The position numbers and the translations under genes are program-made. A stretch of DNA of 23,478 nt, taken from IMG/VR virus record IMGVR_UViG_3300038365_000177; one strand, written 5' to 3'. The stretch comes from a virus. The notes under the pieces were generated by a model, which searched no databases, was not told the origin of the DNA, and saw only the letters and a list, made by a program, of their open reading frames with translations. Of this stretch, positions 1 to 23,478 are shown in pieces. Position 1 is the first letter of the stretch; each line of letters opens with the position of its first letter.

Positions 1-1266
1 GTTCCATGCCCAGGAGGTCGGGGAATTCGCCGAAGTATCGGTGAACATGACCTCTAAGGGAGCCTGTCCGATCGTGGACGAGGCGGTGAAAGAGGCTACC
101 GGTGGGATCATCGCGGTCCCTAGCTTGACCGCACCATAATACGGAACGGAGGCTAGGCTCTTGTACGCGACGACGAAATGGGTGGCGTCCAGAGCGGCGA
201 CGGGGTAGTAGCTTGATGACCCACTGTTGGAAACGCTCGGCGCACAGAGGTTGATGCTTGTACCGCTAACGGTGCCGATAAGCGCGTTCCCGGAAGTAGT
301 ATCACCAAAGTAGGTTCCCCCAGTGGAATAGCTCAATATGAAGTGGGTGGCGTCCAGAGCGGCGACGTTCGAGGTCCAAGTAAACGCGGCGTTGTATACT
401 GCCTGAGGTCCGAGGGTGATTGTCGTCCCACTCACCGATCCGACTATGACGGTGCCATGTAAGGAAGGGGAGGCGCTGGTGTACGCAACCACGAAGTGGG
501 TGGCGTCCAGGGCGGCTATGGTCGTCGGGCGGCCCCCTTGTCCGATCACGACCTCCGGACCGTAGGTGATGCTTGTACCGCTCACCGAGCAAGCAATCAC
601 TCTGTGGTCAAGTGAATCCTCGCGGTAAGTTACTACGAAGTGGGTGGCGTCCAGAGCGGCGACGGAGGTATAGTTGGTGGGCGAGGAGTTGATGACTGCC
701 TCCGGACCGTGGGTGATGCTTGTGCCGCTGATGGTGCCGATTAATGCAGTGCCGGAGCCGGCGTTTCCACCATCGCGGTAAGTTACTACGAAGTGGGTGG
801 CGTCCAGGGCGGCGACGGAGATGCCCCCCGTGACCGCAGAATTGAACACATACTTCGAGCCTAGAGTGATGGTCGTACCGCTGACGGTTCCCACTACAGA
901 ATTACCGAAGCCGCTTTGGGTTTCTTGGAACGCGACAACGAAGTGGGTGGCGTCCAGGGCGGCGACGGATAGAAGACTAATCTCAGACGAGTAGAATTTG
1001 ACCGTACTCCCAAATGTCACAGAGCCTTCGTTGACGATGCCAACAACAACCTTGCCACTATGCGAATCGGTTGAATCGCGGTACGCGACGACGAAATGGG
1101 TGGCGTCCAGAGCGGCTATCTGTATGTCCTCCGCTCCATCTTCACTAAACGTTTTCGAGGTTCCGAAGGTAACGGCCTCCGCCGCTGCCGGCTCCGCCAG
1201 GAGGGTCACTCCCGGGATGACCAGGGCGAGGGCGAGGAGGATGGTTATGACCGTCTTTGGAGACAT
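1..1266 (-). CDS. Secreted 7-blade beta-propeller (AALDATHFVV repeats) + PKD-domain surface protein, 3'-truncated by the window edge (absent from ORF track)
   Basis: ATG at 1266 directly after the TAA of the upstream gene, with SD GAGGAGGAGG. Signal peptide MSPKTVITILLALALVIPGVTLLAEPAAA. Seven in-frame AALDATHF repeats, then PPVASFTASSTIGQAPLEVMFTDTSANSPTSWAWN (PKD consensus). Frame is open to position 1. Confidence 0.9.
   Translation of the reverse strand, partial: MSPKTVITILLALALVIPGVTLLAEPAAAEAVTFGTSKTFSEDGAEDIQIAALDATHFVVAYRDSTDSHSGKVVVGIVNEGSVTFGSTVKFYSSEISLLSVAALDATHFVVAFQETQSGFGNSVVGTVSGTTITLGSKYVFNSAVTGGISVAALDATHFVVTYRDGGNAGSGTALIGTISGTSITHGPEAVINSSPTNYTSVAALDATHFVVTYREDSLDHRVIACSVSGTSITYGPEVVIGQGGRPTTIAALDATHFVVAYTSASPSLHGTVIVGSVSGTTITLGPQAVYNAAFTWTSNVAALDATHFILSYSTGGTYFGDTTSGNALIGTVSGTSINLCAPSVSNSGSSSYYPVAALDATHFVVAYKSLASVPYYGAVKLGTAMIPPVASFTASSTIGQAPLEVMFTDTSANSPTSWAWN
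175..1116 (-). repeat. Seven 24-bp coding repeats gaa(g/a)tgggtggcgtccag(a/g)gcggc
   Basis: Copies start at 175, 340, 493, 637, 790, 940 and 1093. Spacings are 165, 153, 144, 153, 150 and 153, all multiples of 3, and all encode AALDATHF in one frame. Confidence 0.95.
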
Positions 1267-4200
1267 TTACCTCCTCCTCATGCCTTTCTTCTTGCTCCCA
1301 GTGGAGTTGATGGCTATAGCGATCACGATGGCTGCAAGAGCCAGCAAGATCAGTATGATCCACATGGAGCTCCCTCCAGAGCCGTCATCGACGACCTTCC
1401 CGCCGCCCGAGCTGCCGCCGGGTTTGGTCGGAGGGACGTATGGATCATCGCCGTCATCGGGGTCCTCGGGAGCGGCGGCCACGGTTATTGTCCAGTTCTG
1501 ATATGTCGATAGCGTACCGGCTGACGATACGGCCTTGAGGGAGACCTCGTAGGTCCCTGCGGCGGTTGGGGTTCCGGAGAGTACCCCGTTCGTCAGCTTG
1601 AGCCAGCTCGGGGCGCTGACCAGGGTGAAGGTAGCGGTCTCATTGGTCATGGCGGTGTAGGAATATGATGCTCCGACCTTCCCGCTCGTGAGGGGACTGT
1701 TGGTGAATGTGGGGCCCCATGTTGGGATACCCGGTGCGGCGCTCACGACAATAGTCCAGTTCTGGTAAGCGGCGAGCCCGCCGGTGGCCGATACGGCCTT
1801 GAGGGAGACCTCGTAGGTCCCTGCGGCGGTCGGGGTGCCGGACAGGACTCCATCGACCAGGGACAGCCATGCCGGACTGGCCTCCAAAGCGAGTGTGGAG
1901 GTCTCGTTGGTGATCGGAGTGTATGAATAGGTCGTACCGACCTTGCCACTCAGGGACGGCGTCGATGTGAATGTGGGGGACCACTGGGGGACGTCTACCG
2001 TTTCGCTGGTTATGCTCAGCATCGATGTGTCGTTCCAGAAGTGACTGACATAGAGGGTGTTGTCTCGTATATCGTAGCCCACACCCATCTCCCGCGCCGA
2101 GGCGAGGTTGGATAGGGTTCCGTCACTCATCCTGTAAGTCTTTGCACCTTCGGTCAGTATGATGTCCCCGAGGCCCCCTGACAACAATGATAAGTCGAAG
2201 GCTACCGTCACTGGAACATTCCAATATCCGCTTGCATATGGGCTCCGGCGCGAGACATCGTAAACGTAGGTCTTTGCGGAAGACAGCGCCTCGTTGTAGG
2301 TAATGTCGGTCGTCCATCGACCATTCACATACGATGCTACCTCTCCATTAGTGGCCTTCCAGTTCTCGTAGGCGAACCCAGTCTTTGGGTTGGTTACCCA
2401 TGACAAGAATGCGGCCCCAGATGATGTGAAGGATCCGTGACAGTACGCACTGACCACTCCGCCCATGCTGGCGATGTTTTCTACCCAGGGCTCCCATCCG
2501 GCAGCGAGGTTATCCAGACAGGGGTTCCTGTTGATATTCATCAACTGGAGCGGTTCGTAAGGGTAAAAAGCGCCCCCATACCATGCTCCCAATGTGTCGA
2601 AGTCCATCGGAGAAAAGATGCTCCCCGTCCGCCCCATCGTTCGGTATCCCTGCTCGTACATGGCGTAAACCATTTGCAGGTTCCCCCAATTGGCGGGGCA
2701 TCCTCTGGTGATGTAGGTGTCCCCCTGGCCGACGTAACTGGGATCGTCCCAAAGGCTGGCGAAATTGAAGGCGTTAGTCAGCGATGACATACCACTGGCG
2801 GCTTCGGATTTCGCCTGTTCCCATAGCAGATAACCCTGAGTTGCGTATGTGTGGGGAGCGTGATTGCCCGCCTCGGATTGAGTGGTCAGAAGGGCGTTGG
2901 TGTAGGCGAAAGTAGACATATATGATGAAACCGGGTGGTCGTATGCCGAGTAGGTCGAGATGGCATTCGATAGGGAGAGATCGTCGACGCCGATCACCGA
3001 TACCCAGTCCCATCCATTCCACCATAACGGCAAGCTGATACCATTGGCAGTCTGGGCCATCGTGGTTATCTGGAAATATCCGTCGAAGGCGTAACCATCC
3101 ACTGCCACTGAATATGACACCTGCTCGGCCCAGTTCACGCTCCTCCCCAGGGATACTTCGTACCGCTGCCGTTCCGGGACATATGCGGCCGCTATTCCCC
3201 CGATCATCACCGTGGCATCGGCGATGGGATTATTGTCCAGTCCCCTGAGGTAGAGATATGCAGGAGAATCCTCCATAATGTACTCGTAGATCGGGTTGAC
3301 GATGGCGTATCGATCCCCAATACTGCCGATCCGGAGGTTGTCGATACACCACATGTTGAAGGTGTTGTATTCCCCCGTTTTGTCGATGGCTACATCCACA
3401 GTATATGTCATTGCAGGGTCGGAAATGGGGGTCGAGACCGCAACGGTCTCCGTGGCAAGCAGAGACACCACACCATCGATCGAATGATGGATGCTTACGA
3501 CCACGGAGGTCTCGCCGCTGTACTCATAGCTGACTATGTAGTAGTCCACCTTGTTACCGTACATCCCTTCCTGATTTTCCACAGCATATGGGGTTGGGTC
3601 GTGACGGTTGGCGTGGCCTGGTAGGACATCGTCGACTACAGTCCACCACGTCGAGTTCGCAGCAGAGTAGATCTTGATGTTCTCATATCCAAGGCTTGGT
3701 TCTCCTACATAGAGGGAGACGCCAGCCACCTCAACGCCATTGTCGATCAGGCGGACGATCATGCCGTATTTCGATGATGGGATGCCGTTGGCCTGGTGTA
3801 TGGACTCATCCTTTGACGGATACAGTTCCGAGGACATGACCCACGAGCTGCCTGGAATTGTGGGAGTGTAGGTCATGACCTTAGCATTGGATAGGTCAGT
3901 CCTCACGAAGCTGATGAGCTGGCCTCCGAGGGCGATCACTTCCTCATCAGCGGACGGGTTATGCAATACCAACGTTCCAGTATCTAGGGTGATGGTGTTT
4001 GGGTCATGGGTCCCGTTCGCTAACCTGTCAAAGGTCTCGATCCCGCCGGATCCTGGTTCTAGGACGGTCAGCGTATAGTTCTGATATTCAGAGGAGTCAT
4101 CATCGTAGGCCCGCAGGCTCACGCTGAACGAGCCCGTAGAAGATGGCGACCCAGATAGGTTGCAGGTCGCACCCCCTACCTCCCAATCAGCGGTCAGCCA

Positions 4201-5733
4201 CGTGGCGTCGGTTGTGAGCTCCCATCTGATCTGACCGGCGTCGGCGGCTGTGGCCGTGGCGGCGTAGTAATAGTTGGACCCAGTGTAGGTCTTTTCAATA
4301 GGTTCGCTCGTGATGGAGGGTGAATCGGCGGGCTGCCCGTATGTCACACGCACATAGGGGAGGTTGGCAGAGTCGAGGCCGTTGAACTTGGTGGTATGCC
4401 AATATGACTCGGTGGGCTTCACTTGGTCTATGTCCTCATCATAACGAATGGTGAAGGGGATGTATTCTCCCGGACAGCTCTGCAAGTATGCGATACCGGC
4501 GGCGTTGAATTCGATGTTGATGTAAGTGTTAGGTTTGACAAACGAATTTCCGCCAGTGATCGTATAAACATCGACGCTCCCAAGGTCTCCGGTCCAGAGG
4601 GCCTGATTATAGTTCGCATCTGAGTTTGGATAGGTCACGGCAGTAGAATCGACCGCTCCCTGAATGACCAGGAGCTTATGGAGGTCGGCATAGCCTGAGT
4701 TGATCTCAGTACAATACAAGTTCACCGAGGCGCTCATGATGCTGCTCGTTGGTATCGAGGAACGAGGGAGCCAGAAGGTTGGTCTGGCGATGAAGTAGCC
4801 GCCATATGTTGAGCTGTAGCTGTGGCCTACGTTGTTGTCCGTGATCAGACTTCCAGTGGTATTGTACCATGAGTTCGGGTCTCCAGTGTTATAGTTCGCA
4901 TAGGACCGCTCATAGGTGTCGAGATCTGATGGCGTCACATCCTTGGTGGTGGTTACAGGCGGCACATCGCCCCCACCAGTTCCATCTATGTACGTCTCAG
5001 AATAATTGTCAACCTTGGCAATAATCTGGTGGGAACCAGAGGATCCGGTGTTGAGATTCTGAAAATTGGTCCAACCTACACTCAGGGGCGTCCCTGAGAG
5101 TATGGACTGCCTATTGATGCTAGGGGAGGCCCACGAGCCCGAGTCCGTCCACAGCCGCTGGTCGATGATCCATTGACCGTTGGAGTAATGTCGATGGAAG
5201 TTTACATGGTAGGTCGTCCCCTTGACCGGCGTAATTTGGTTTGCCCCAGTGGAGGAGCTTGCAGCCTCGTACATCTGGAGGGACAGAACAGGACCGTTCG
5301 AGTCTTGGTAGAAATTTAGCTGGGTCGATTCATATCCGGCCACAGTCCCCGACCACGCCGTCGATTCGGTCAGGGTCTTGGTGGCAACATTCCAGTAGTA
5401 AGCGACTCCAACGTCCACTCCCCAGCTCACCAGCAGGACGGAGAACGAGATATTGTACTCCCCCGTAGTGGTCTGAGACCATTGATGGGTCACAAAGTTG
5501 TTGTAATTACGCCATGCATCTATGTTGAGAGTTCCGTCGGAGATCGTGGTTCCGGCCGGATAGTTAATAGTCCATCCGTCAGAGGTGGAGAAATCTGAAG
5601 ACCACGAGGCCGCTGAGGCGTTCTCGCTCGTGGCCAGGAACGCCATTCCGGAGAAGAACATCGACAGTACCATCGCCACGGACATCAGCTTCCGCCCGGG
5701 CGAGGGGTTGTTTACACTACCTCCCGTGCTCAC
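1267..5733 (-). CDS. 1488-aa multidomain surface adhesin: signal peptide, lectin-like domains, DNRLRE/CBM96-like domain, He_PIG Ig-like domains, CE4/polysaccharide-deacetylase-like domain, C-terminal TM + basic tail
   Basis: Signal MSVAMVLSMFFSGMAFLATSENASA. DNRLRE-like segment ARPTFWLPRSSIPTSSIMSASVNLY...PYVRVTY. LSGSPSSTGSFSVSL and two LSGTPTAAGTYEVSLKAVS Ig repeats. IGVDD/GNHAPH/AYCHG motifs. Tail WIILILLALAAIVIAIAINSTGSKKKGMRRR. Confidence 0.85.
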   Translation of the reverse strand: MSTGGSVNNPSPGRKLMSVAMVLSMFFSGMAFLATSENASAASWSSDFSTSDGWTINYPAGTTISDGTLNIDAWRNYNNFVTHQWSQTTTGEYNISFSVLLVSWGVDVGVAYYWNVATKTLTESTAWSGTVAGYESTQLNFYQDSNGPVLSLQMYEAASSSTGANQITPVKGTTYHVNFHRHYSNGQWIIDQRLWTDSGSWASPSINRQSILSGTPLSVGWTNFQNLNTGSSGSHQIIAKVDNYSETYIDGTGGGDVPPVTTTKDVTPSDLDTYERSYANYNTGDPNSWYNTTGSLITDNNVGHSYSSTYGGYFIARPTFWLPRSSIPTSSIMSASVNLYCTEINSGYADLHKLLVIQGAVDSTAVTYPNSDANYNQALWTGDLGSVDVYTITGGNSFVKPNTYINIEFNAAGIAYLQSCPGEYIPFTIRYDEDIDQVKPTESYWHTTKFNGLDSANLPYVRVTYGQPADSPSITSEPIEKTYTGSNYYYAATATAADAGQIRWELTTDATWLTADWEVGGATCNLSGSPSSTGSFSVSLRAYDDDSSEYQNYTLTVLEPGSGGIETFDRLANGTHDPNTITLDTGTLVLHNPSADEEVIALGGQLISFVRTDLSNAKVMTYTPTIPGSSWVMSSELYPSKDESIHQANGIPSSKYGMIVRLIDNGVEVAGVSLYVGEPSLGYENIKIYSAANSTWWTVVDDVLPGHANRHDPTPYAVENQEGMYGNKVDYYIVSYEYSGETSVVVSIHHSIDGVVSLLATETVAVSTPISDPAMTYTVDVAIDKTGEYNTFNMWCIDNLRIGSIGDRYAIVNPIYEYIMEDSPAYLYLRGLDNNPIADATVMIGGIAAAYVPERQRYEVSLGRSVNWAEQVSYSVAVDGYAFDGYFQITTMAQTANGISLPLWWNGWDWVSVIGVDDLSLSNAISTYSAYDHPVSSYMSTFAYTNALLTTQSEAGNHAPHTYATQGYLLWEQAKSEAASGMSSLTNAFNFASLWDDPSYVGQGDTYITRGCPANWGNLQMVYAMYEQGYRTMGRTGSIFSPMDFDTLGAWYGGAFYPYEPLQLMNINRNPCLDNLAAGWEPWVENIASMGGVVSAYCHGSFTSSGAAFLSWVTNPKTGFAYENWKATNGEVASYVNGRWTTDITYNEALSSAKTYVYDVSRRSPYASGYWNVPVTVAFDLSLLSGGLGDIILTEGAKTYRMSDGTLSNLASAREMGVGYDIRDNTLYVSHFWNDTSMLSITSETVDVPQWSPTFTSTPSLSGKVGTTYSYTPITNETSTLALEASPAWLSLVDGVLSGTPTAAGTYEVSLKAVSATGGLAAYQNWTIVVSAAPGIPTWGPTFTNSPLTSGKVGASYSYTAMTNETATFTLVSAPSWLKLTNGVLSGTPTAAGTYEVSLKAVSSAGTLSTYQNWTITVAAAPEDPDDGDDPYVPPTKPGGSSGGGKVVDDGSGGSSMWIILILLALAAIVIAIAINSTGSKKKGMRRR
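1525..1830 (-). repeat. 42-bp identical repeat within the tandem He_PIG-like domain duplication (264-nt period)
   Basis: cgatacggccttgagggagacctcgtaggtccctgcggcggt at 1525-1566 and 1789-1830. Confidence 0.95.
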
Positions 5734-5734
5734 C

Positions 5735-7252
5735 TTACCGCCTCCTTCTGCCTGACTTCTTGTTGATACCCTGGCTCATAACTACGGCAACGATCGCGAT
5801 GCCGAGAACAAGAAGGACGGCCACGATCCACAGTGCCCTTGAGGGCTCGTCATCGGCGACCACGGAGCTCCCGCCCGTCTTAGGCGGCTTGGTCGAGTTA
5901 GTGGGGGTGGGGTCCTCGTCGTCTACGGGATCGACGGGGGGCGCGGCTGCCAGGGACGGGACGGTACAGATGGCCCCGACCGGACATATGTCATTATACG
6001 TCGGCACCCCGATAATGGCGAACCTAGAGGGCTCCAGTGGCTGCACGATCACAGGTATGCTGTGGGGGTACTCGATCAGGTCGCCGAGCGTGATCTCATC
6101 GCCGTTGACGGTGGCGAGAGCGGCGTATGCGGTGTTCAGGGAGTAGGCGTAGCCGGTCCAGGCGAAGTGAGTGGCGTCGAGGGCGATCGGGCCGCCCATC
6201 TCAGCCTCGAAGGGCATGATGACCGGGTCCCCGATCGTGATGGAGATGCCGTCGATGGTGCCCATCTTGAGCATGGTCTTGCCATCGGACTCCACGGAGC
6301 ATATGGCGAAGTGAGTGGCGTCGAGGGCGGTGATCTTCGGATTCTGGGCATAATATACGTCCTGGGTGACCATGAACGTGGTCGGCGTGCCGTAGGTGAT
6401 GATATCGCCGTTGATGGTGGCCACCATAGCGGTGCCGCCGTTGGGCGCGTTCGCGGTGGTGGCGGTGTACCAGATCAGGAAGCTGTCGCTGTCTAGGGCA
6501 GCGATGTTGGCGTCGGCCTTGATGCTGTTATACTGGTTGGCATCGCCGAGCGTGATCTCATCGCCGTTGACGGTGCAGATGACAGAGTTCAGGGTCCTCG
6601 GTTCGCCAGACCCAGTATCCTCGGCATAGGTCAGAACGAACCGGCCATCATCCAGGACGGCTATGCGGGTGTCGTCCGATGTTATGACGATCGGCAGTTC
6701 CCGCGTGTTCGCGGCACCAGCGTTGAACTGGTTCTGCCCATCGATGGTCAGGATGTGGAGGGTGAGTAGTGCATTCTGCCCACTGTATCCAACCTTGTAT
6801 CCCAAGAACACGGCGTGGGACGGGTCCAGGAGGGCCATGCGTATGCCGTCGAAGTTACTAGAGAACAGGGGCTGTGTCTCTCCCAGGATGGCGGTGTCTC
6901 CGTTGGTGGTGATGGCGAAGCCGTACACCCAGTCAGGATGGGTTGAGTGATTGCTAAGGGTTTCGGCGACGCCAAGCACTCTGGACGGGTCCGCGGAATC
7001 CACATCGATCGATGAGGATATGACATCATGGGAGCCCAGGCCAGTGTAGGTGATGGGGTCACCGACCAGTATATCTGCCTCGGTTGCTGCGAGTGCCTGC
7101 TGGCTGGCCGGGCCGACCAGCATAGCAAGAGTGATCATCATGGCAATTGCCATGATGGAGAGTGCTGGACAGAGCACCCGGCGTTTTCTGTCAGTTCTTG
7201 CGCTGGACGGCCTTTCGGCCCCCCGATCCCGTCGTATCCATTTTCCAAACAT
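5735..7252 (-). CDS. Membrane-anchored beta-propeller protein (ALDATHF-type blades), paralog of the 1..1266 gene
   Basis: ATG at 7252 overlaps the upstream TGA, with SD GGAGG. Signal-like hydrophobic segment. About 7 blades (ADPSRV, LLDPSHA, VLDDGRF, ALDSDSF, ALDATHF x2, PLEPSRF). Pro/Asp linker, TM and KKSGRRRR tail. Confidence 0.8.
   Translation of the reverse strand: MFGKWIRRDRGAERPSSARTDRKRRVLCPALSIMAIAMMITLAMLVGPASQQALAATEADILVGDPITYTGLGSHDVISSSIDVDSADPSRVLGVAETLSNHSTHPDWVYGFAITTNGDTAILGETQPLFSSNFDGIRMALLDPSHAVFLGYKVGYSGQNALLTLHILTIDGQNQFNAGAANTRELPIVITSDDTRIAVLDDGRFVLTYAEDTGSGEPRTLNSVICTVNGDEITLGDANQYNSIKADANIAALDSDSFLIWYTATTANAPNGGTAMVATINGDIITYGTPTTFMVTQDVYYAQNPKITALDATHFAICSVESDGKTMLKMGTIDGISITIGDPVIMPFEAEMGGPIALDATHFAWTGYAYSLNTAYAALATVNGDEITLGDLIEYPHSIPVIVQPLEPSRFAIIGVPTYNDICPVGAICTVPSLAAAPPVDPVDDEDPTPTNSTKPPKTGGSSVVADDEPSRALWIVAVLLVLGIAIVAVVMSQGINKKSGRRRR
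6081..6575 (-). repeat. Internal exact coding repeats (33 bp and 25 bp)
   Basis: tcgccgagcgtgatctcatcgccgttgacggtg at 6081-6113 and 6543-6575 (TVNGDEITLGD). ggcgaagtgagtggcgtcgagggcg at 6161-6185 and 6305-6329 (ALDATHFA). Confidence 0.9.
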
Positions 7253-9285
7253 CACGTTCTCCTCCTTCCAGCCTTCTTGCGCCCAGAGAACATGACCAGA
7301 ACGAGCGCGATGATGACGATGATGGCCGCGACGACCACGACCACAACGATGCTCTTCACGAGCTCATCGCCGAAGAACGCGCTCATGGTCAGCGGGGATC
7401 CGTCAGCGGGCTTGCCCCCGGCCAGGAAGTCAGCCCACATGTTGTCTATGACCTGCCTGGAGTTTGCCAGCTCCGACGTGATGTTGGTGATGGCCTGATT
7501 GGCCTTGGCCTGCTGGTCGGCGAAGAACCGCTGGGTCTCCATCAGGTTGTCGCTCATGTCCGAGAACATCTGCGCGAACATCGCGTTGGTGTTCTCCATC
7601 TGGGTCTGTGACCAGGACATGAACTCCTTGTTCATCTCGGCGATCGAGGTGATCGAGTCGGTGACGGAGGCTGTGATATTGTTGACCGTCCCGGTGGCCC
7701 AGGTGTAGGCGGCGGTCATGCTGCTTCCGACCAGGCCGATGAACTTCTCGGTCGTGGCGTTCAGCACGGCCCACCATCTGGCCGTCTCCTCGGTGAAGCG
7801 GTCGGCGACCTGATTGTATGTCTGATTGAGCCCGTCCTGGATGTCCTTCCAGGTGGGAACGTATTCCCGGAACTTGTCTAGGTTGAGCGGGTCGTCCAGG
7901 AAGCCGAATGCCTGCTCGCAGGCCCAACGGACGCCCAGCTCGGCGGCCTTGGCCCCTCCGGCGATCGTCCCGCCGACGTCTGCGAGCATGTCCCCTATCA
8001 GATCGAGCTCGGCGGCCGGAAGGAAGGTCATGGTCATGGTCGACCGGGCGCTGTCGACGCTCATAACGGAGAGTTGCGTCGTCGACCCGCCGTCTTTGGT
8101 CTCCCCAGCGTTGGTGGCGGCATATGCATTACGGAGGCTCTCCCAGAGCCTCGTGTACTGCGTCTCGACGATCTCCTCATCGACCTCAGTGGATAGCTGG
8201 AGATAGTCGACGTAGTAATCGACGAGGAATACGTTGCTGGCCTGGAGGCCGAGGCCTCCGGCGATGGATGACCTCAGAGATGATTCGAGATCTCCCCGGA
8301 AGTCGGTCCAGCCCTTGGCTACTAGGATGCCTTCGATGCGCTGGTTTGGCTCGGGCATCGCTCCGAAGAGGTCAATGAGCTCTTCCTTAGTGTAGCGGTC
8401 CTTGGTCAGGTCGAGAGCGGGGATGCCGTTGGCGGCCTGCACGACCTCGGAGCCGGATCGGGCGAGGTCGAGGGATTGGCGGTCGAGCCGGATGCCAGCC
8501 TGGGTGCGGTAGGCGTCGGAGGTCATGGCGTCGACCGCCTTGATGCTGTCAGAGGATGAGGTCAGGGGGGCGGTGTCGGTAACGTAGAGGTAGTCGAACG
8601 TGGCGCTGCCAGCGGCACCCTCGATGCCGAAGTGGACCTCATTGATCTCGCCGGCGTTCAGGACGGCGCTGTTGGCGTAGTAGTTGGCCAGCAGCGTCCC
8701 GTCGGCGGCGTGGACGTAGTAAGTGAGGGTCGTGGCAGTCAGCTCAATCGCAACGCGGTAGTAGGTGTTGGCGGCGATCGGCGCGTAGATGTTGCCGGTG
8801 GCGACATTGGACGCCGTGGTGTACTGGTAGGTCATCGACCCGGAGGCAATGGTCACTCCGGCGATGTTGCCAGTGGCGACGTTCTCCACGGTGAACGAGG
8901 TATTCTGGGTCGAAACATTGGACGCCTTGAGCCGGGTCTCGATGAAGCACCGGCCATCGGGGTTGATGCCTGGAGCATCAGACCCGGACAGGGTCAGCTC
9001 GACCGGAGTGGCCGAGGGGGCCGAGACGGAGAGGGCGGAGTTGCTAACGGACACGCTGGGAGCGCCGACCGAGACCTTCCAGCGGCCAAGGCCGTCGAAG
9101 CGTTGCAGGTATGACGGCTCGTCGGTGACATACGTCACGTCGCGGAAGTGCGGGGCGGCCTTGATCTCGAACGGGTCGATCTCCTCGGCGCTGGCCCCCA
9201 GGGTGATGCACCCTGAGCCTAGGATGGCAACGGAGAGGAACGCGAAGATGAGAGTGATGGCGGTAAACCTGGTGGTGAGTTGCAT
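7252..9285 (-). CDS. 677-aa type I membrane glycoprotein, spike-like (lectin-like head, long amphipathic helical stalk, C-terminal TM)
   Basis: SD AGGAGG 6 nt before ATG 9285 (track start 9351 is probably too long). Signal peptide. Beta-rich N-half and helical C-half with sequons NQT, NAT, NIT, NIT. SPLTM motif, TM and RKKAGRRR tail. Confidence 0.7.
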   Translation of the reverse strand: MQLTTRFTAITLIFAFLSVAILGSGCITLGASAEEIDPFEIKAAPHFRDVTYVTDEPSYLQRFDGLGRWKVSVGAPSVSVSNSALSVSAPSATPVELTLSGSDAPGINPDGRCFIETRLKASNVSTQNTSFTVENVATGNIAGVTIASGSMTYQYTTASNVATGNIYAPIAANTYYRVAIELTATTLTYYVHAADGTLLANYYANSAVLNAGEINEVHFGIEGAAGSATFDYLYVTDTAPLTSSSDSIKAVDAMTSDAYRTQAGIRLDRQSLDLARSGSEVVQAANGIPALDLTKDRYTKEELIDLFGAMPEPNQRIEGILVAKGWTDFRGDLESSLRSSIAGGLGLQASNVFLVDYYVDYLQLSTEVDEEIVETQYTRLWESLRNAYAATNAGETKDGGSTTQLSVMSVDSARSTMTMTFLPAAELDLIGDMLADVGGTIAGGAKAAELGVRWACEQAFGFLDDPLNLDKFREYVPTWKDIQDGLNQTYNQVADRFTEETARWWAVLNATTEKFIGLVGSSMTAAYTWATGTVNNITASVTDSITSIAEMNKEFMSWSQTQMENTNAMFAQMFSDMSDNLMETQRFFADQQAKANQAITNITSELANSRQVIDNMWADFLAGGKPADGSPLTMSAFFGDELVKSIVVVVVVAAIIVIIALVLVMFSGRKKAGRRRT

Positions 9286-9300
9286 GGGGGTCCTCCTGAG

Positions 9301-9321
9301 ATTCAAATAAAGAAATAAAAA
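9301..9321 (-). terminator. U-rich tract between the two spike-like paralogs (possible partial terminator or internal promoter)
   Basis: Minus strand reads TTTTTATTTCTTTATTTGAAT just after the stop at 9332, in otherwise GC-rich DNA. Confidence 0.45.
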
Positions 9322-9331
9322 GGGTTTGAGC

Positions 9332-11092
9332 TCACGCCTTGCGCTTGCCACGGACCTTCTTGGTGCCGAACACGCCGAGGAGGATGACCGCCACGATGGC
9401 GATGATCACCACGACGATGACGATGGGGAACACGAAGTTGCCCATCTCGGTCACCATCGTCAGGGGGCTCTCCAGCAGCTTGCCGTTCTCCATGACGGTC
9501 CAGGACATCGAGCTCTGCACCGAGGTCAGGTCCATAGCCATGTACTTGGCGTTCTGTAGGATCTGGCCGAGCAGAGCATCGGTGAACTGGAAGGCAGAGT
9601 CGAGTCCCTTCATGGTGTTGTACCAGATGTTGGACTCCATCGCGCCCTCGGCGGTCATGGAGAGGGTTGCGGTGTCGGTGATGTTACCGAAGCTAAGGGG
9701 GACCATCATGGCCGCGCCGACGGTGTGGTAGCGGAGGTAGTCCTGGAGGGTTTCCATCTTCTCACCGAACACGGAGGTCGAAGCGGTGGTGGGGAAGAAG
9801 AGGTACTCCACATCGTCGTACTCGTGGAAGGTCTCCATCGGAGCGGTGCGGCCGAAGGACAGCGCCTTGGACATGTCCTTGTCGGCGTACTTGATCTCCG
9901 CTCCCAGACCGGCACCCATCTCCTTGACGGAGCTGTACCATGCATCGTTCACGTCAGCGGCCAGCTCGGAGGTCCAGGTGTAGTTGACCTGGCAGGAGCT
10001 CATGTAGTAGTCGATGACGCGCACCTGGTCTATGGGAACCTTGTGGACCGAGGCGATGTAGTCCGCCAGGACACGTTCGTTGTCGGCCTGGAGGTTCTTC
10101 CATCCCATGTACTTGGCGAGGCCACGGACCGGGTTGTCGGTCTCCTTCTCAACGGCGAGGATCTCACCGAAGTCGGTCTTGTTGAGGTAGCGGTCGTTCA
10201 CGATGCTCTTGCCGGCATCCTGGTAGCTGTAGGCTTCATGGACGAAGGCGTCGCTGGAGTACGAGCCGGGAACCATGCCCTCAGCGCCGAAGTCGATCTC
10301 CATCTTCTGGTAGGTGTCCAGGGCGGTGGGGGTGGCGTTCAGGTCGGCGGTCTCGTAGGTGGTCGGGGTGAACGCGGTCCTCTCGCTGGAGCCGAAGTAG
10401 TAGTCGGCGTAGCCAGTGGTGGCGGCGGCAACGTTCTTGATGATGACCGCGTCGATGCTGGCGGCGGTGAGCTCACAGTCGGTCACGACGGAGGACTCGA
10501 TGAGAGTACCATTGTCGTAGCTGGCGGAGAACACAACGCTGTCGGCGGCGAACTCGATGGCCAGTAGGTAGAACTTGTCGGCCTCGTAGGCGGCAGCAAG
10601 GGTCACGATCTTGACGGCGGTGCCGTCGTAGTAGGTGGCGGCGATCGATCCGTCGGCAGCGAGGCCGATGGATGCCATGTTTGACGAAGAGAACTTGTCC
10701 AGGGTCATGCTGACATTGGCGGTGATGGCGCTTGCCTTGAGCTTGGTCTCAAAATAGGTCGAGTCGTCAAGAGCGGCGGTCTCGTCGATGGTCAGGTTCG
10801 CGCCCTGGTTCTCTCCCATGACCATCAAAGAATCGTCGAAGGTCACGGATCCGATGGCGTTCCACATTCCGATGGCGTCAAATCTCTGCGAGGTCTGTAC
10901 GGGGTCCAGGACGTAGGTCACGTCCCTGTAGCCAGGGACGAGCTCCATGTCGACATCCCCACCGGACGCTGCGGAGACTTCCATAGTAATGGCACCGGAG
11001 CCGAGCACGAAGGTCATCATGAGGATGGCCGTAGCAAATAGCGCACCGTAGGCTCCGAGCCTCTTCTTTGGTCTAGCGGTTGTCTGTTCCAT
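9332..11092 (-). CDS. 586-aa type I membrane protein, paralog of 7252..9285 and first gene of the structural operon
   Basis: SD AGGTGA 7 nt before ATG 11092. Signal peptide. Shared blocks with the paralog: PGYRDVTYV..QRFDAIGMW vs PHFRDVTYV..QRFDGLGRW; VIDYY vs LVDYY; SPLTM before the TM. Basic tail KKVRGKRKA. Confidence 0.75.
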   Translation of the reverse strand: MEQTTARPKKRLGAYGALFATAILMMTFVLGSGAITMEVSAASGGDVDMELVPGYRDVTYVLDPVQTSQRFDAIGMWNAIGSVTFDDSLMVMGENQGANLTIDETAALDDSTYFETKLKASAITANVSMTLDKFSSSNMASIGLAADGSIAATYYDGTAVKIVTLAAAYEADKFYLLAIEFAADSVVFSASYDNGTLIESSVVTDCELTAASIDAVIIKNVAAATTGYADYYFGSSERTAFTPTTYETADLNATPTALDTYQKMEIDFGAEGMVPGSYSSDAFVHEAYSYQDAGKSIVNDRYLNKTDFGEILAVEKETDNPVRGLAKYMGWKNLQADNERVLADYIASVHKVPIDQVRVIDYYMSSCQVNYTWTSELAADVNDAWYSSVKEMGAGLGAEIKYADKDMSKALSFGRTAPMETFHEYDDVEYLFFPTTASTSVFGEKMETLQDYLRYHTVGAAMMVPLSFGNITDTATLSMTAEGAMESNIWYNTMKGLDSAFQFTDALLGQILQNAKYMAMDLTSVQSSMSWTVMENGKLLESPLTMVTEMGNFVFPIVIVVVIIAIVAVILLGVFGTKKVRGKRKA

Positions 11093-11195
11093 AGTCATTT
11101 CACCTGTCTGGACGGGTGGAGGGACAACCTTTCGTTTCGATGGGGAGTCGGTGACGGCGATCTGCTCCCCCATCCGTCCATCGGTGATCTTACGA

Positions 11196-11253
11196 TGGCC
11201 CATCCGAGTATTTGAGAGGCAAAAGATGGGCCAGAAATCAAAGTTAAAATAAG
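11196..11253 (-). promoter_or_regulatory. Putative promoter of the structural operon with a 9-bp inverted repeat (operator-like)
   Basis: Minus-strand TTATTTTAAC near 11243-11252. tggcccatc (11196-11204) and gatgggcca (11225-11233) flank the expected start site. Confidence 0.45.
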
Positions 11254-11287
11254 AGTTGCACGAACCAGGCAGAAATCGGGTTTGCGG

Positions 11288-11545
11288 TCAGGGCTTTAGG
11301 TCCCTCTTCCGCCGCTCGTAGTACAATTGCAGGGCCTCGGCCATTACCTGTTGTTTGTTCTTGCCAGTAATGAACTTTTCCTGGTCGAGCATGTTGGCTA
11401 TGTAGTCGGGAATATCGCTCCTTAGTCGGATCGGAACGGTCCTGCAATCACTGACCTCACCGAAGATCGTCAGGGTGAGCAGGGAGAAGATGACCGCTCC
11501 GCCCACCGAGATCTCGGTGATCATCACAAAACAAAGCTCAGACAC
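11288..11545 (-). CDS. Ribbon-helix-helix (CopG/MetJ-like) DNA-binding protein; start uncertain
   Basis: RTVPIRL (strand), IPDYIANMLDQEKFITG (helix A) and KNKQQVMAEALQLYYE (helix B) match the RHH pattern. Confidence 0.65.
   Translation of the reverse strand: MSELCFVMITEISVGGAVIFSLLTLTIFGEVSDCRTVPIRLRSDIPDYIANMLDQEKFITGKNKQQVMAEALQLYYERRKRDLKP
11504..11519. repeat. Perfect 16-bp palindrome caccgagatctcggtg
   Basis: The sequence equals its own reverse complement. Confidence 0.9.
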
Positions 11546-11686
11546 GCCGCCCTCCCGGGGACATTTGCCGGTAAATGCGGTCCTCGGGCTCAGGCTGAGT
11601 GCATTGACGTTTGAGGTCCGGCGGGACCTCCGGTATCGTCGTCATGTTTGGTTGGCTCCCCTAAGATACTCTATCGAGGGTGGCCA

Positions 11687-11694
11687 TTTTAAAC
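11687..11694. promoter_or_regulatory. TATA-like box in the divergent intergenic region
   Basis: ttttaaac between the minus-strand RHH gene and the plus-strand membrane gene. Confidence 0.4.
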
Positions 11695-11740
11695 TTGCTA
11701 TATGCGAACGCTTATTCAATTGTACCAATATATCCTGGGC

Positions 11741-12376: not shown

Positions 12377-12453
12377 TTCCTCATTTTTATCAACAGGCTT
12401 TCTCGGTCCCGTTCCCGATTCCTATCATCGGGAATAAACAGGATGGTTAAACC

Positions 12454-12603
12454 ATGAACATAGTAAGCATAAACCTGAGCATTCCTGACTGGGTACCAGA
12501 GGAGCTACGGAACGAGATAGCAAGGGAAATGAAAGAGCAGGCCCGAGAAGCTATGGTATGTGTTTGGTTGAGGTATTCACCGAAGGTCGAGCAGCCAGAA
12601 TGA
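12454..12603 (+). CDS. 49-aa hypothetical protein (below the track cut-off)
   Basis: MNIVSINLSIPDWVPEELRNEIAREMKEQAREAMVCVWLRYSPKVEQPE. Purine-rich AGGATGGT upstream and T-tracts directly after the stop. Confidence 0.5.
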   Translation: MNIVSINLSIPDWVPEELRNEIAREMKEQAREAMVCVWLRYSPKVEQPE

Positions 12604-12611
12604 TGCTGAAA

Positions 12612-12660
12612 AACCTTTTTTCTCTTTTTATCCCCCCTCATTTTTGTTGAAAAAGGAAAG
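12612..12660. terminator. Bidirectional T-/A-rich terminator region between convergent operons
   Basis: Plus strand has ccttttttctcttttta. The A-tract aaaaaggaaag is T-rich on the minus strand, downstream of the 168-aa gene. Confidence 0.5.
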
Positions 12661-12709
12661 GAGTTTGGGGGTCTGGGTTGCGTTATTTCCGTGAACGGGC
12701 GTCGAGGCG

Positions 12710-13216: not shown

Positions 13217-13801
13217 TTACATCTCTCCTTGCGTTTGCTCTTCATCGAACTCATAATCGAAGTCCCCGATCTCCTCCATAAGCTGCGCTCCGCTCATGAT
13301 CGAGTAGTTGCGGACCGCGACCTCCAATGTGCAGCCCATCCAATGAGGGACCTGATAGATGGTCATGCCCGCGCCGCTCTCATTCTTTGGTCGGAGAAGC
13401 CAAATGCAGTAGGTGTGACGCATGGTGAGGCACGACACGCCGTCATACCCGGCCCGTTCGCCGATCTTGCGAAGGATCTCGTCGTAATGCTTGTTGCTTT
13501 TCGCCGGCGAGGAGAGGAACTTCTCGATAAGGGAGATCTCGTCCTTCCGGATGGGGAAGGAGCGGAGGGTCTTGTTCGTCTTCGGACGCATCCACGACAG
13601 GTATCGGGCTTTGCCCTCGCGGAGAATCTTCGGCCGCTCTCTCGGCTTGCCGTTCCGCTTCCTCGGATTGCAGAACACCGAGGAGTGCATCCCGGTATTG
13701 AGGAGGAGGAGAACGAGACCCCGCTCGTAATCGTCACGGCAAGCGCCGAGCATCTTCAATTTCACGTCCCTGTCGGTGATCGGATACTTCACGGTTCCCA
13801 T
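13217..13801 (-). CDS. Tyrosine recombinase/integrase-like protein, catalytic domain only (194 aa), with atypical catalytic residues
   Basis: Box I LLLNTGMHSS, RPKTNK, box II SCLTMRHTYCIWLL...MGCTLEVAVRNY. SD GGAGG. Confidence 0.8.
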   Translation of the reverse strand: MGTVKYPITDRDVKLKMLGACRDDYERGLVLLLLNTGMHSSVFCNPRKRNGKPRERPKILREGKARYLSWMRPKTNKTLRSFPIRKDEISLIEKFLSSPAKSNKHYDEILRKIGERAGYDGVSCLTMRHTYCIWLLRPKNESGAGMTIYQVPHWMGCTLEVAVRNYSIMSGAQLMEEIGDFDYEFDEEQTQGEM

Positions 13802-13802
13802 G

Positions 13803-14224: not shown

Positions 14225-14251
14225 GTTACGCTCCCTCCGACCGGTCAGCCT

Positions 14252-14362: not shown

Positions 14363-14726
14363 ATACCTCGCCCCTCCAGCCGAACTCGTCATTCAGGAGC
14401 AGTTCGTCCAAGCCCTCCTTGGAGAGCCGCACCCATGCGTTGTCGTAATGTTCACCCTCTACCAAGCTTCTCAGGCGGATCACCTCCTCCAGGAACTGGA
14501 GGATGGCCTTGTCAAGATTGGCCTCGCGCACGTCATACCCGCCTTGGGAGCCTTTCTCAAGCTCTCTCCATCCCCTAGTGACGATATATGGCGTGGCCAG
14601 CTTCTCCTCTAGGTCCTCGCGCTCCCTAGCCTTCCTCTTCCTCCGCCCGTCGACCTCAGTATAGATCACCAGGGCGGCCCCTAATACAAGCGCCCCTATC
14701 GCTATTATCGAGCCCATGTCGTTCAT
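14355..14726 (-). CDS. 123-aa protein with N-terminal TM anchor
   Basis: SIIAIGALVLGAALVIY followed by a basic patch. ATGA overlap with the upstream gene. Confidence 0.75.
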   Translation of the reverse strand: MNDMGSIIAIGALVLGAALVIYTEVDGRRKRKAREREDLEEKLATPYIVTRGWRELEKGSQGGYDVREANLDKAILQFLEEVIRLRSLVEGEHYDNAWVRLSKEGLDELLLNDEFGWRGEVYV

Positions 14727-15811
14727 TGGTTGCCTCCATTTGCCGGTAAATACGCCCCGGCCGGCGTTTCATTCTCGGACTGCCGCGAACGAAGCCAAGA
14801 GAGCCCCCTCGCGGAGTAGTAGACGACGAAAACAACTCCGACCGCCGCCCATGCGAGGGTCAAGACCTCGAAGGTGGCCGTCAGCACGTCGAGAGGGAAG
14901 AACTCCGCCCACATGGTCATGAAATTATTGGCGAAGTGGAAGGTTATCGACGCCCACAGGCCGACCTTGAGGAAGAGGTATCCCATGATGAGGCCTCCGA
15001 CCGCCGCCGGGATGACCTTATAGGCGTCCCAGGCCCACAGGTGGCCGAGGCCGAACATGGCGGCGGAGAAGAGCATGAGCGCGGCCTCGCGGTCCCCGAT
15101 CTCGATGTCTCCGCCTAGGATGTATCGCCGGAGGTCCTTGCGCTTCTTCGCGGCGGCGTCGAGGACGAGCAGCGGGATCCCGATGAGCAGGACGCGGGTG
15201 ACGAGCTCCTCCCATACCGAAGCGTGGGCGAGGGACGCGAGGCTCTGCCATAGCGGGCGGGCCTCGAAGTCCGGCGAGGACGCTCCGCCAATCAGGTCAG
15301 CGAAGTAGAAGCTGGCGATGTTGACGGCCAGCAGCGCAAACCACATTGTCGCTATGAGGAACGCGGGGGAGTGCTCGACCACGATCCATCTGTGGCTCAG
15401 CTCTCTCCGGAACTTGTAGCGAGACAGCCTCGCGGTCCACCAGGCGCTAAGGACGATGGCGATGGCCAGGATGGAGTACCAGAGCGAGGCGGCCAGGCCG
15501 TCGAGATGAGCGAACGGCACCAGGAACGGCGTGATGACGAAGAGCGAGACGCGGCCGCTCTCTGGCATGACCAGGGCGGAGCCCAAGAGCAGGGCGATCA
15601 GGTTGAGGGCCAGGACGGCGAGGAACGGCAGGGCGGCCCACGCTCCGAGCATGGTGACGCCGGTCCGGGCGGCGTTTCTTAGCCGTGCCGAGAGCCTCCT
15701 GGGGCATGGCCCGTCGATGGTGCAGCTCACATGCTCATCAATCATGCTGATCGCCTGGTGGGGGCATCCCAGACAGGCTTTCGGGTGGAGATCCCTTCTT
15801 CTCAGTCCCAT
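14723..15811 (-). CDS. CPBP-family (Abi/CAAX, Rce1-like) intramembrane glutamic endopeptidase with a Cys-rich N-terminal extension
   Basis: Multiple TMs. Motifs WEELVTR (EExxxR), FGLGH (FxxxH) and HFANN (HxxxN) are intact. Confidence 0.9.
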   Translation of the reverse strand: MGLRRRDLHPKACLGCPHQAISMIDEHVSCTIDGPCPRRLSARLRNAARTGVTMLGAWAALPFLAVLALNLIALLLGSALVMPESGRVSLFVITPFLVPFAHLDGLAASLWYSILAIAIVLSAWWTARLSRYKFRRELSHRWIVVEHSPAFLIATMWFALLAVNIASFYFADLIGGASSPDFEARPLWQSLASLAHASVWEELVTRVLLIGIPLLVLDAAAKKRKDLRRYILGGDIEIGDREAALMLFSAAMFGLGHLWAWDAYKVIPAAVGGLIMGYLFLKVGLWASITFHFANNFMTMWAEFFPLDVLTATFEVLTLAWAAVGVVFVVYYSARGLSWLRSRQSENETPAGAYLPANGGNQ

Positions 15812-16002: not shown

Positions 16003-17038
16003 GATTGCTCACTCTCCCACTGGTCCACCCTCGGTATGTTCAGCATGGCCCTTTCCTCGGCCAGCCTGCCGTACTCCGGGTTGATCTCGATGCCGATGGC
16101 CTCGATGTCGTTCTGTCGGCAGTATTCCAGGACGGTCCCACTCCCGGCGAAAGGGTCCAGAACTACCCCCCCCCAGATGGACAGCCGGCGCGGATCATTC
16201 GTTCAATGAGCGCCGTTGGGAACGAGGCGAAGTGGCTCCCACGGTATCCCTTGGTGGGGATGGACCACACTGATCTCATGTTCCTAGTGATGGTGGCCTC
16301 GCGCTTGCCTACCCAATAGCTGTGGTTGCCAGCATCCTTCATCTCCAGGTTCTTCGGACCGCCAAAGGCGTAGTCGTAACGCTTGATGCTGGCCTCCTTC
16401 ATCGGCTCCTTCTGCTGAGCGAAATAGTGGTCGTTGGCGAGGGTGAAGAAAAGGACATCCTCATAGTCGACGGTGAAGCGGTCTGCGATGCTGGACGGCA
16501 TGGCGTTCGGCTTTTGCCAGATGATGCGGTTACGGAGCTTCCAGCCGTGCTCTGACATGGCCAGGGAGAAGCGGGAGGGGACCTGGAGCAGGCCCTTGTC
16601 CTCGTAGGAGTCGCCGAGGATGACCCAGCAGGTGCCCTTGGGCGAGAGGACGCGCTTCACTTCATCGAAGATGCCTACGAGATGCTGGATGAACAGATCC
16701 GGGGTCGGTTCGAGGCCAAGCTGGCCACGCCACGCACCGCATAGAGAGCAGGAATAGCCCTTGTGCAGCCTGCCAGACGTGTTGCTCCTGGCCTCTTCCT
16801 GCCCCCTAGTGTTCCCGAAATCTCGCCCGTCATGATCTCTCCTGGGGCGCATTACCTTGCTCCCCTGGTCCATCCAGTCGTGAGGGCAGAGCGGATCGCC
16901 GCCCCAGATGAGGGGCTCGGTTCCGTAGTCGCGGAGGAGGTAGTATGGCGGGGAGGTCACGACGCAATCGACCGAGGCCTCGGGGAGCGTCTTGAGCACA
17001 TCGGCGCAGTTGCCGACGATCAGGCGCTGGCCGGTCAT
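15999..17038 (-). pseudogene. Beta-class N4C/N6A DNA methyltransferase, frameshifted at a G9 tract (OFF state or sequencing indel)
   Basis: Motif IV VTSPPY is N-terminal. The reading stops at GGG GGG GGG TAG (16163). G7 or G10 restores GVVLDPFAGSGTVLEY...IGIEINPEY, ending at TGA 15999, which overlaps the next GTG. Confidence 0.9.
16166..16174 (-). repeat. Poly-G9 tract (C9 on the plus strand)
   Basis: Counted directly. Second-longest homopolymer I found in the window. Confidence 0.9.
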
Positions 17039-17103
17039 GCTCCGCCCCCTTGGATCCCGAACTCGGCCTCGAAGTCCCTTATGGACGTCTGATCATCATC
17101 CAT
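17035..17103 (-). CDS. Possible 22-aa coupling peptide MDDDQTSIRDFEAEFGIQGGGA
   Basis: SD GGAGG upstream and ATGA overlap with the N4/N6 MTase start. Confidence 0.35.
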   Translation of the reverse strand: MDDDQTSIRDFEAEFGIQGGGA

Positions 17104-17591
17104 CAGCACTCCCTCCATGATGCCATCCGTCCAGAGTGGCTTGTCGTCCGCCGTCGATCTGTTGGGACAGAACGACGATGATACTGGGGAACGTGGCCGG
17201 AGCCGCCGTCCCCCCCCCCCCCTTCGGATTCGAACTTGAGGCGGCCGCGAACGAAGCGGACCTCTGCCCCAATGTCCAGCAAGCGGTGAAACCATCTGGT
17301 GTCGGTCCTGGCCGGCAGGAGCATGACTATCCTAGTGCAGCGGTGCGACTCCTGGATGGCCTTATCGATCCATTGGGCGATGACAGCGCCGTATGGGGGG
17401 TTGACGAATACTGAGCCGTCCCACGGCTGGGCGAGGCCATCTTCCTCCACGGTGTAGTGTCGTTCACACTTGGCGTTGCTGTGTGAACTGGCCGGGTCCA
17501 GGTCGAAGGAGAACTCCTCGTCCAGTTCGATGAAGAGGTCGCGTGGGGTACCCCACTCGCACGTTTTGGACGTGGCCATGTAGCCGGCCAT
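17096..17591 (-). pseudogene. Phage Dam-like N6-adenine DNA methyltransferase (PF05869-type), frameshifted at a G13 tract
   Basis: EWGTP, FDLDPAS, VNPPY, LLPARTDTRWF and RGRLKF motifs. G12 restores the family-type end APATFPSIIVVL with a stop at 17096. G13 gives an aberrant tail stopping at 17103. Confidence 0.88.
17210..17222 (-). repeat. Poly-G13 tract (C13 on the plus strand)
   Basis: Counted directly. Longest homopolymer I found in the window. Confidence 0.9.
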
Positions 17592-18218: not shown

Positions 18219-18220
18219 GG

Positions 18221-18466: not shown

Positions 18467-18468
18467 GG

Positions 18469-23269: not shown

Positions 23270-23478
23270 TCATTGATCCTCGATAACCAGCGAGAGCTCG
23301 CGCTGCTCGTGGATGATTATTAGTTCCCCCCGCGCCTGCGCGTCGAGGAGCTTGCATTGCTCGATTCCCCAGAGCTGGCTATTGCGGTAAAGGGTTTCTA
23401 TCTTGTTTTCAGCATCTATTTGATGGCCAGAGGTGGATGCGCACCCCGAATCTCTTCGGGCCCACCACATCTCACGGC
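23270..23478 (-). CDS. 3' end of a hypothetical protein, 5'-truncated by the window edge
   Basis: The frame is open to the edge and ends ...LIIIHEQRELSLVIEDQ. Confidence 0.5.
   Translation of the reverse strand, partial: REMWWARRDSGCASTSGHQIDAENKIETLYRNSQLWGIEQCKLLDAQARGELIIIHEQRELSLVIEDQ

Follow-up and report, generated by a model that had tools for sequence, protein, structure and literature searches.

How does a ~59-kb archaeal element spread if it carries a long operon for secreted, membrane-anchored proteins and no detectable capsid, tail or conjugation genes? We addressed this question for IMG/VR virus record IMGVR_UViG_3300038365_000177, a stretch of 23,478 nucleotides (the window) from a fermentation metagenome (SRR1562004, contig k127_37041). 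The window is 23.5 kb of the element, which is present on three independent ~59-kb contigs (ENA NODE_263, 59,041 bp; JGI, 59,021 bp; NCBI DARW01000001.1, 59,419 bp), and the gene map comes from identical or near-identical contigs. The host lineage is fixed by a relative of one of its proteins, P4, with 36% identity, which is encoded on a 587-kb contig in the metagenome-assembled genome of an uncultured member of the Methanomassiliicoccales. A first-pass annotation, made from the window sequence, had proposed a larger enveloped virus or a vesicle-disseminated element. Judging from the genes and their relatives, we favour a similar reading and are somewhat more confident than doubtful of it: the most likely role of a conserved block of genes that begins in the window is to build and load a transmissible particle that is bounded by a membrane and has no capsid, whether an enveloped virus or a plasmid vesicle.

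An open reading frame (ORF) scan showed that five long co-directional minus-strand ORFs fill positions 1–11203 of the window. We labelled these genes P5 to P1 in the order of their transcription (Table 1). As the first-pass annotation had described, they are consecutive, coupled genes for proteins with signal peptides: all five products have an N-terminal hydrophobic, signal-like segment (hydrophobic segments were called from Kyte-Doolittle windows), and the junctions are tight. P4 and P3 overlap in GTGATG, P3 and P2 are 1 nt apart (TAAgGTG), and P2 and P1 meet in TAAATG; the sole loose junction is that of P5 and P4, with a 46-nt spacer. We also confirmed that the four complete proteins, P2–P5, end in a transmembrane helix and a Lys/Arg tail, the tails being KKKGMRRR, KKSGRRRR, KKAGRRRT (P4) and KKVRGKRKA (P5). 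P1 is cut by the window edge, and at its full length of 793 residues (L001:18020-20401, on an identical contig) it likewise ends in a transmembrane helix, with the tail KKSGRRRR. The Arg codons of the tails (AGG/AGA) double as the AGGAGG Shine-Dalgarno sequence of the next gene (window 7252-7270, 5735-5750 and 1267-1280), so that the same stretch serves as membrane-anchor tail and translational coupling signal.

The first two genes of the operon, P5 and P4, are paralogous (24% identity over 397 residues, E 4e-24), and the P4 family is small: a search of 1.84 billion protein clusters found only 43 representatives (E up to 1e-3). An AlphaFold2 (AF2) model of P4, built with 31 of the 43 representatives, has a ConA/LamG jelly roll at residues ~39-270 with a predicted local distance difference test score (pLDDT) >90, an alpha/beta domain at ~300-390, long helices at ~424-560 with pLDDT <50, short strands and a transmembrane helix. 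The layout of P4 runs from a signal peptide through the LamG head, the alpha/beta domain and the helices to a conserved juxtamembrane motif, the transmembrane helix and the tail; paralogy suggests that the head of P5 is LamG-like too. Searches with P4 by Foldseek (PDB and BFVD) and by fold in the atlas returned LamG/ConA, glucanase and receptor-binding-domain matches only, with no full-length structural relative, and many of the viral matches were phage receptor-binding proteins. Against PDB sequences, the sole match of the P4 profile was SO2946, a LamG-like protein. We also searched with P4 and with the ATPase encoded at the end of the block: profile scans of IMG/VR found no relatives of either, and tblastn found no match to either among INPHARED phages and PLSDB plasmids.

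The other three proteins have an adhesin-like make-up. P1 has seven AALDATHF repeats, followed by two PKD and two He_PIG domains (precomputed Pfam: PKD, PKD_4, He_PIG) and the transmembrane helix, whereas P3 has about seven degenerate repeats of ~50 residues; a ~50-residue repeat unit is common to both (E 8e-19). The repeat region of P1 would probably fold as a seven-bladed propeller, and the repeats of P3 probably form a beta-propeller. Pfam gave no match for P2–P5, and Pfam and PHROGs together gave nothing specific for the five proteins, P2 being without a match in either. P1 is 711 residues long in the NCBI contig (L006:7869-10004) and 793 in most assemblies (L005:7623-10004), presumably through a change in repeat copy number among otherwise near-identical elements.

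The operon extends well beyond these five genes. The first-pass annotation had given it a length of 11 kb; the coupling of the five genes stands, but the operon does not stop at P1 and continues for ~8 kb more, outside the window, to the ATPase gene. The block from P5 to the ATPase is therefore ~19 kb long, and the five window genes are its front two-thirds. Of the downstream products, g456 scores above the Pfam cut-offs for Zn-dependent phospholipase C (PF00882, 29.7 bits) and fn3 (27.8 bits), and it is conserved across all three full members of the family described below. Profile searches against PDB sequences gave no match for g475, g96 or the ATPase, and an atlas feature search with g475 returned weak adhesin-like rows only (0.82). 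Where a packaging or extrusion NTPase and a small membrane protein had been suggested as things to look for in the flanks, a Zot-like ATPase and g96 are present, as is a basic protein of 431 residues.

BLASTP showed that the order P5, P4, variable slot, g475, g456, g291, g96, g189, g156, ATPase is kept, at 26–42% identity, in two relatives. One is L019, an 84.5-kb contig with ParB and resolvase genes upstream; the other is a ~45-kb element in genome G001, between an HdrD-like gene and that for HMG-CoA reductase. A third member, ERZ1426827, has the same order as judged by gene sizes, and its ATPase has a faint Zot match. In L019 and G001, P5 orthologs have 36–40% identity. Variation is confined to the slot between P4 and g475: it holds P3, P2 and P1 here, an 878-residue He_PIG/BNR protein in L019, a 207-residue protein in ERZ1426827 and a P2-like gene in G001, which alone has a P2 ortholog (41% identity). 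A further integrated element, of only 12–13 kb, lies between a Rieske gene and purF in G227 (L050; G227:C6:799000-813999). It carries a P5-like gene (27% identity) and then a g96-like gene, which are its only candidate structural genes, as well as genes for a resolvase, a tyrosine integrase and an 864-residue protein, and has no ATPase. Separately, at G019:C1:87857-94993 (L046/L047), a P3-like head with 51% identity is fused to a different C-terminal motif (...GAIAYV..) that is common to its neighbours; two early genes have homologs in that element as well. It appears that elements with different anchors exchange adhesin heads.

Of 261 Methanomassiliicoccales species genomes, just two, G001 and G227, have P4/P5-like genes. 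In L019, G001 and G227 alike these genes lie within integrated mobile elements, and none was found in an ordinary chromosomal adhesin locus, which would have spoken against a viral origin. No other protein in G001 has the same anchor. These distributions, and the fact that three divergent elements keep P5, P4, g475, g456, g291, g96, g189 and g156 in the same order with the ATPase always next, are difficult to reconcile with the idea that the element is an integrative plasmid whose operon only remodels the host surface, for gut or biofilm attachment or exclusion of rivals, with no role in transmission. That idea draws on the composition of P1–P3, which have domains of adhesin type (PKD, He_PIG, propeller-like repeats, LamG) and are swapped between elements, and on the fact that adhesin-like proteins are common in gut Methanomassiliicoccales (PMC10673518). 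We consider it unlikely.

The ATPase at the end of the block may belong to the Zot family. ATPase orthologs in four genomes exceed the gathering cut-off of Pfam Zot (PF05707; 20.3 bits) in six-frame searches (G001, 30.5 bits; G156, 23.8; G158, 22.6; G072, 20.4), although the model is a loose one that is over the cut-off in 5 of 14 control genomes. The element's own ATPase has no Pfam match at E up to 0.1. Its ESM Atlas neighbours, by language model and by structure, are Thermoplasmatota and uncultured-virus clusters in which 14–54% of members carry Zot. The predicted structure of the ATPase has a C-terminal IclR-like winged helix and no membrane segment; Foldseek with this model against PDB gave nothing at E up to 1e-3, and a VIA-wide fold search gave tied, generic RecA/ASCE matches (VirB4, TcpA, EssC, FtsK-type translocases). 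The ATPase profile matches 46 of the 261 species genomes, in some of them two to four times. Eight other ATPase neighbourhoods were inspected, several of which have large proteins with hydrophobic N- and C-termini and a ~300-residue protein with two to three transmembrane segments upstream. By these comparisons, the ATPase family appears broad and patchy, with exchangeable surface genes.

Beside the block (L009:7749-15144), 11 consecutive genes encode otherwise unrelated proteins that have in common an N-terminal peptide of ~20 residues, GSGWH(R/G)ESRRHAEAAKKGR. The set includes a DUF3560 protein, a Zn-ribbon protein and a 407-residue zincin-like (HExxH) protein with the motif HEMIHH, a homolog of which follows the ATPase in four of the eight other neighbourhoods and in L019. 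The G001 element has two copies of the peptide too, which may be a packaging or targeting signal for proteins delivered with DNA. We looked in PMC5512222 for a link between DUF3560 and polyvalent proteins, did not find one there and do not claim it. Effector sets of this kind accompany DNA in conjugative elements and phages (PMC5512222), and one adjoining the block fits a scheme of cell-to-cell transfer in which anchored proteins on a donor would grip the recipient and fuse or bridge wall-less cells, with the ATPase and the basic protein moving the DNA, in a conjugation-like or fusexin-like system that makes no free particle. Such transfer would use the same membrane-protein block, ATPase and integrating element; the ATPase fold matches to VirB4, TcpA, EssC and FtsK-type translocases would suit it, as would the wall-less state possible for hosts of this order (PMC10673518). 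However, we found neither a relaxase nor a coupling protein nor an ATPase of VirB4 size. The family whose threshold the ATPase orthologs pass, Zot, is one of assembly and extrusion, and in the small G227 element a spike and g96 occur with no ATPase. We regard direct transfer as conceivable but doubtful.

The absence of capsid and tail genes, noted for the window in the first-pass annotation, holds for the rest of the 59-kb element. For its ~95 genes, the precomputed Pfam results include no capsid, portal, terminase, tail, VirB4, VirD4 or relaxase family, and the flanks contain neither a head-tail module nor VirB4/VirD4 conjugation genes. The HK97 capsid model (PF05065) found nothing in a six-frame search of G001. 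PHROGs gave no structural match save one, between residues 371–618 of P4 and a tape-measure family (E 1.5e-4). We rejected a tape-measure identity for P4, since the similarity is that of a coiled coil and the protein has a signal peptide and a membrane anchor. Archaeal virus proteins often evade profile searches, and this weak match might be read as a trace of a virus, tailed or icosahedral, in which capsid, portal and terminase have diverged beyond detection. However, none of the unassigned genes resembles a large terminase or portal in size or features, and all proteins of at least 400 residues are accounted for, being either membrane-anchored or marked by the shared N-terminal peptide (with DUF3560 or a zincin motif). 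With the HK97 searches also negative, we consider a hidden capsid very improbable. Given that the element lacks detectable capsid, tail and conjugation genes, it most likely spreads in a membrane-bound particle of a kind not yet described.

The element integrates into the host chromosome and is also found as a circle. The final 8 nt of the window are identical to a 272-kb host contig (L017) and differ from the circle sequence in a base-level comparison, and the blastn breakpoint between the integrated and circle forms, L015:9572, corresponds to window position 23470. In L017, cellular genes (AMP-binding enzyme, ACT, PBP, hemerythrin, rubredoxin, Na/H exchanger) run up to 430 nt before the gene for a 535-residue protein, whereas L015, L016, L024 and L029 have a gene for a 334-residue tyrosine integrase (PF00589) in place of the host genes. 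The integrase gene (L015:8478-9482) is outside the window, beside attP and 90 nt short of the junction. A second contig of the window's sample, k127_33252 (35.5 kb; L026 end), crosses attP and continues for 126 nt, over which it overlaps the window contig, and the two contigs add up to the full element (23.5 + 35.5 kb). Since the same sample contains one contig with attL and another with attP, integrated and circular forms coexist. We conclude that the element is active: it integrates via a tyrosine recombinase, excises and occurs as provirus and circle in the same community. We found no tRNA at the att site. In a search for CRISPR-spacer matches, BLAST of window positions 1–20000 against the 261 genomes gave only short matches of 91–97%, mostly to low-complexity sequence coding for transmembrane segments, and hence no evidence of spacers.

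The remaining window genes are listed with the block in Table 1. The CPBP/Rce1-like protease gene has 64–70% DNA identity with more than 30 Methanomassiliicoccales genomes and is absent from the examined stretches of L019 and G001; by these comparisons it was captured from a host recently and lies outside the core. We set aside the idea that this protease is a dedicated anchor-sorting enzyme, as it is of host type and was not seen in the examined stretches of the relatives. The N6_N4 methyltransferase is 291 residues long in the window and 346 in other assemblies, which fits a poly-G tract noted in the first-pass annotation. Elsewhere in the element, a 301-residue protein (L013:9793-10698) matches phrog_6247 (‘DNA topoisomerase’; E 1.5e-66) and adjoins a 789-residue ParB_N protein. 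GGE(R/Q)x or GGDRP forms the C-terminus of many small early proteins (L013, L015 and the early region of the window), probably because the strong ribosome binding site of the next gene overlaps the final codons.

Table 1 Features of the element. Positions are those of the window unless a contig stretch is named; aa, amino acid residues; TM, transmembrane
Feature	Position	Strand	Description
P5	9332..11092	-	586 aa from the ATG chosen in the first-pass annotation (AGGTGA before it); 623 aa from 11203
P4	7252..9285	-	677 aa, anchored, spike-like
P3	5735..7255	-	506 aa, anchored; variable adhesin slot
P2	1267..5733	-	1488 aa, anchored, adhesin-like; immunoglobulin-like repeat units near C-terminus; variable slot
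P1	1..1266	-	First 422 of 793 aa, anchored adhesin; remainder outside window
g475	downstream of P1	same direction	Signal peptide, TM helix, RKRKKGGNRK tail
g456	L009:1655-3025		4-5 N-terminal TM helices, phospholipase C + fn3, TM helix, RSRRRKR tail
g291	downstream	same direction	Polytopic
g96	downstream	same direction	96-aa small hydrophobic protein, conserved
g189 + g156	downstream	same direction	Small, soluble
ATPase	downstream	same direction	383 aa, P-loop; Walker A GERGGGKTH, Walker B LLDEFQ
Basic protein	downstream	same direction	431 aa, lysine-rich; Cys-rich head, long Pro/Ala/Lys tail
Possible small regulator	11288..11545	-	85-aa ORF upstream of P5, called in every assembly; role from position only
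Integrase-like remnant	13217..13801	-	194 aa; phrog_216 (integrase), E 1.8e-8; not the element's working integrase
CPBP/Rce1-like intramembrane protease	14723..15811	-	PF02517, E 5.5e-13; host type, accessory
DNA methyltransferases N6_N4_Mtase + Dam	16163..17591	-	Pfam; first at 16163-17038
535-aa protein	21434..23041	-	Family not recognised; first gene inside the provirus left end; host genes directly upstream in L017
attL, provirus/host junction	23463..23478	.	Element ends at 23470; last 8 nt are host flank

We propose the following scheme for the membrane-bounded particle. Signal peptides would export the products of the block, and the C-terminal helix with its positive tail would hold them in the membrane. 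P5 and P4, with LamG head and helical stalk, would act as attachment and fusion spikes, and P3, P2 and P1 as exchangeable adhesins that set the target range. The anchored g475 and the membrane-bound phospholipase C g456 would modify or remodel the membrane, for which polytopic g291 and hydrophobic g96 may provide a scaffold. The winged-helix Zot-like ATPase and the lysine-rich 431-residue protein would carry condensed DNA to the membrane, and the particle would leave by budding or extrusion and enter by membrane fusion. Methanomethylophilus alvi, a member of this order, lacks both cell wall and S-layer (PMC10673518), and because hosts of this order can be wall- and S-layer-less, budding and fusion would be feasible, as in pleolipoviruses.

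Several observations weigh against this reading. Neither a particle nor a virion protein nor DNase-protected DNA has been seen. Its core proteins appear to have no homology to the structural proteins of any known virus in the PHROGs, phage and plasmid tblastn and IMG/VR comparisons. The AF2 models are of modest quality, with a mean pLDDT of 68 and values below 50 in the putative fusion half of P4. Proteins with LamG, PKD, He_PIG and propeller domains are also typical of ordinary cell adhesins. Finally, 59 kb far exceeds the genome of any known pleomorphic virus (7–17 kb; PMC10919331).

We tentatively suggest, as a bolder version that may well prove wrong, that the elements are an undescribed lineage, of family level or higher, of large (45–59 kb) temperate enveloped viruses of wall-less methanogens. 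Entry would be through paired fusogens of a new type (LamG head, helical stalk, conserved juxtamembrane motif), aided by a virion phospholipase C, and these viruses would deliver, along with their DNA, ~11 proteins addressed to the particle by the shared 20-residue N-terminal peptide GSGWHxESRRHAEAAKKGR. If particles exist, the LamG-stalk pair would represent a prokaryotic membrane fusogen of a new class and the shared N-terminal peptide a new protein-packaging signal, and the upper size known for capsid-less archaeal viruses would become about three times higher. Very few viruses or plasmids of Methanomassiliicoccales, which produce methane in the rumen, human gut and digesters, have been characterised, and the present family is missing from IMG/VR, PHROGs and the reference collections of phages and plasmids. 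With members in ~18% of the order's species genomes, an ATPase-centred family would provide a major channel for gene flow that has so far gone unseen, and it could serve as a genetic tool.

The closest comparison is with Pleolipoviridae and their relatives (HRPV-1; AvPV1, ‘Thalassapleoviridae’; PMC10919331, PMC6381117). These share with the present element a temperate or non-lytic style, the lack of capsid genes, and a block that encodes an anchored spike with a signal peptide, a small membrane protein, a further membrane protein and a P-loop NTPase; some of them (His2, AvPV1) also have two spike paralogs. The proposal of a larger enveloped or vesicle-borne element thus stands to the extent that head-tail genes, conjugation genes and chromosomal loci of the same kind were not found, but any specific kinship to pleolipoviruses is unsupported. 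With hhalign, the P4/P5 family and g475 matched HRPV-1 VP4 with probabilities of 0.6% and 0.3%, g96 matched VP3 with 2.4%, and the ATPase matched VP8 with 2.9%, from Walker A to Walker B only. The g96 gene lies in the block (and beside the spike in G227), and the ATPase has the position of a VP8-like NTPase at the block's end. The first 230 ectodomain residues of P4 are modelled as a LamG jelly roll, whereas the V-shaped VP4-like fold has its N1 four-helix bundle first, followed by N2 and C1–C3, and VP5 likewise starts with a four-helix bundle (PMC6381117), so we do not class these proteins as VP4-like; Foldseek of P4 against PDB, which holds 6QGI and 6QGL, gave LamG/ConA only, the C-terminal half of P4 being poorly modelled. 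The present element also differs in its size, 59 rather than 7–17 kb, and in its additional adhesins, phospholipase C, basic, putatively DNA-binding protein and 11 peptide-tagged proteins. VP4-like proviruses have been reported in Methanomassiliicoccales, as relayed by PMC10919331, which cites Medvedeva et al. 2023, and an overlap of the present family with that catalogue is possible.

His1 (Halspiviridae, AF191796) resembles the element in its small membrane proteins of two to three helices, its anchored proteins with signal peptides and C-terminal anchors, and an ATPase-like ORF with a C-terminal helix-turn-helix. However, the match to its ORF16 covers the P-loop only (hhalign probability 34%), its genome is linear, 14.5 kb long and served by a protein-primed polymerase, and g96 is less hydrophobic than spindle-virus capsid proteins. 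With the Zot/pI ATPases of filamentous phages (PF05707), the likeness lies in ATPase orthologs that pass the Zot cut-off and in atlas neighbours that carry Zot; as in these phages and, by analogy, Acholeplasma virus L2 (Plasmaviridae), progeny would leave a living host, wall-less or intact, by way of its membrane. Unlike the filamentous phages, the element has no filamentous coat or replication genes, and its own ATPase has a winged helix and neither a Pfam match nor a membrane segment.

Plasmid vesicles of the pR1SE type, from Halorubrum lacusprofundi, are a further precedent: pR1SE is ~50–60 kb, can integrate, encodes membrane proteins and travels in vesicles without a capsid. Its host belongs to another phylum, and P4 and the ATPase, the sole proteins tested, have no tblastn match in PLSDB; the present element resembles it in size, integration and membrane proteins. 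We conclude that, while its core proteins appear to lack detectable relatives among described viruses and plasmids, the element is of a known kind, that of capsid-less, membrane-based archaeal elements, and is three to eight times the size of pleolipoviruses.

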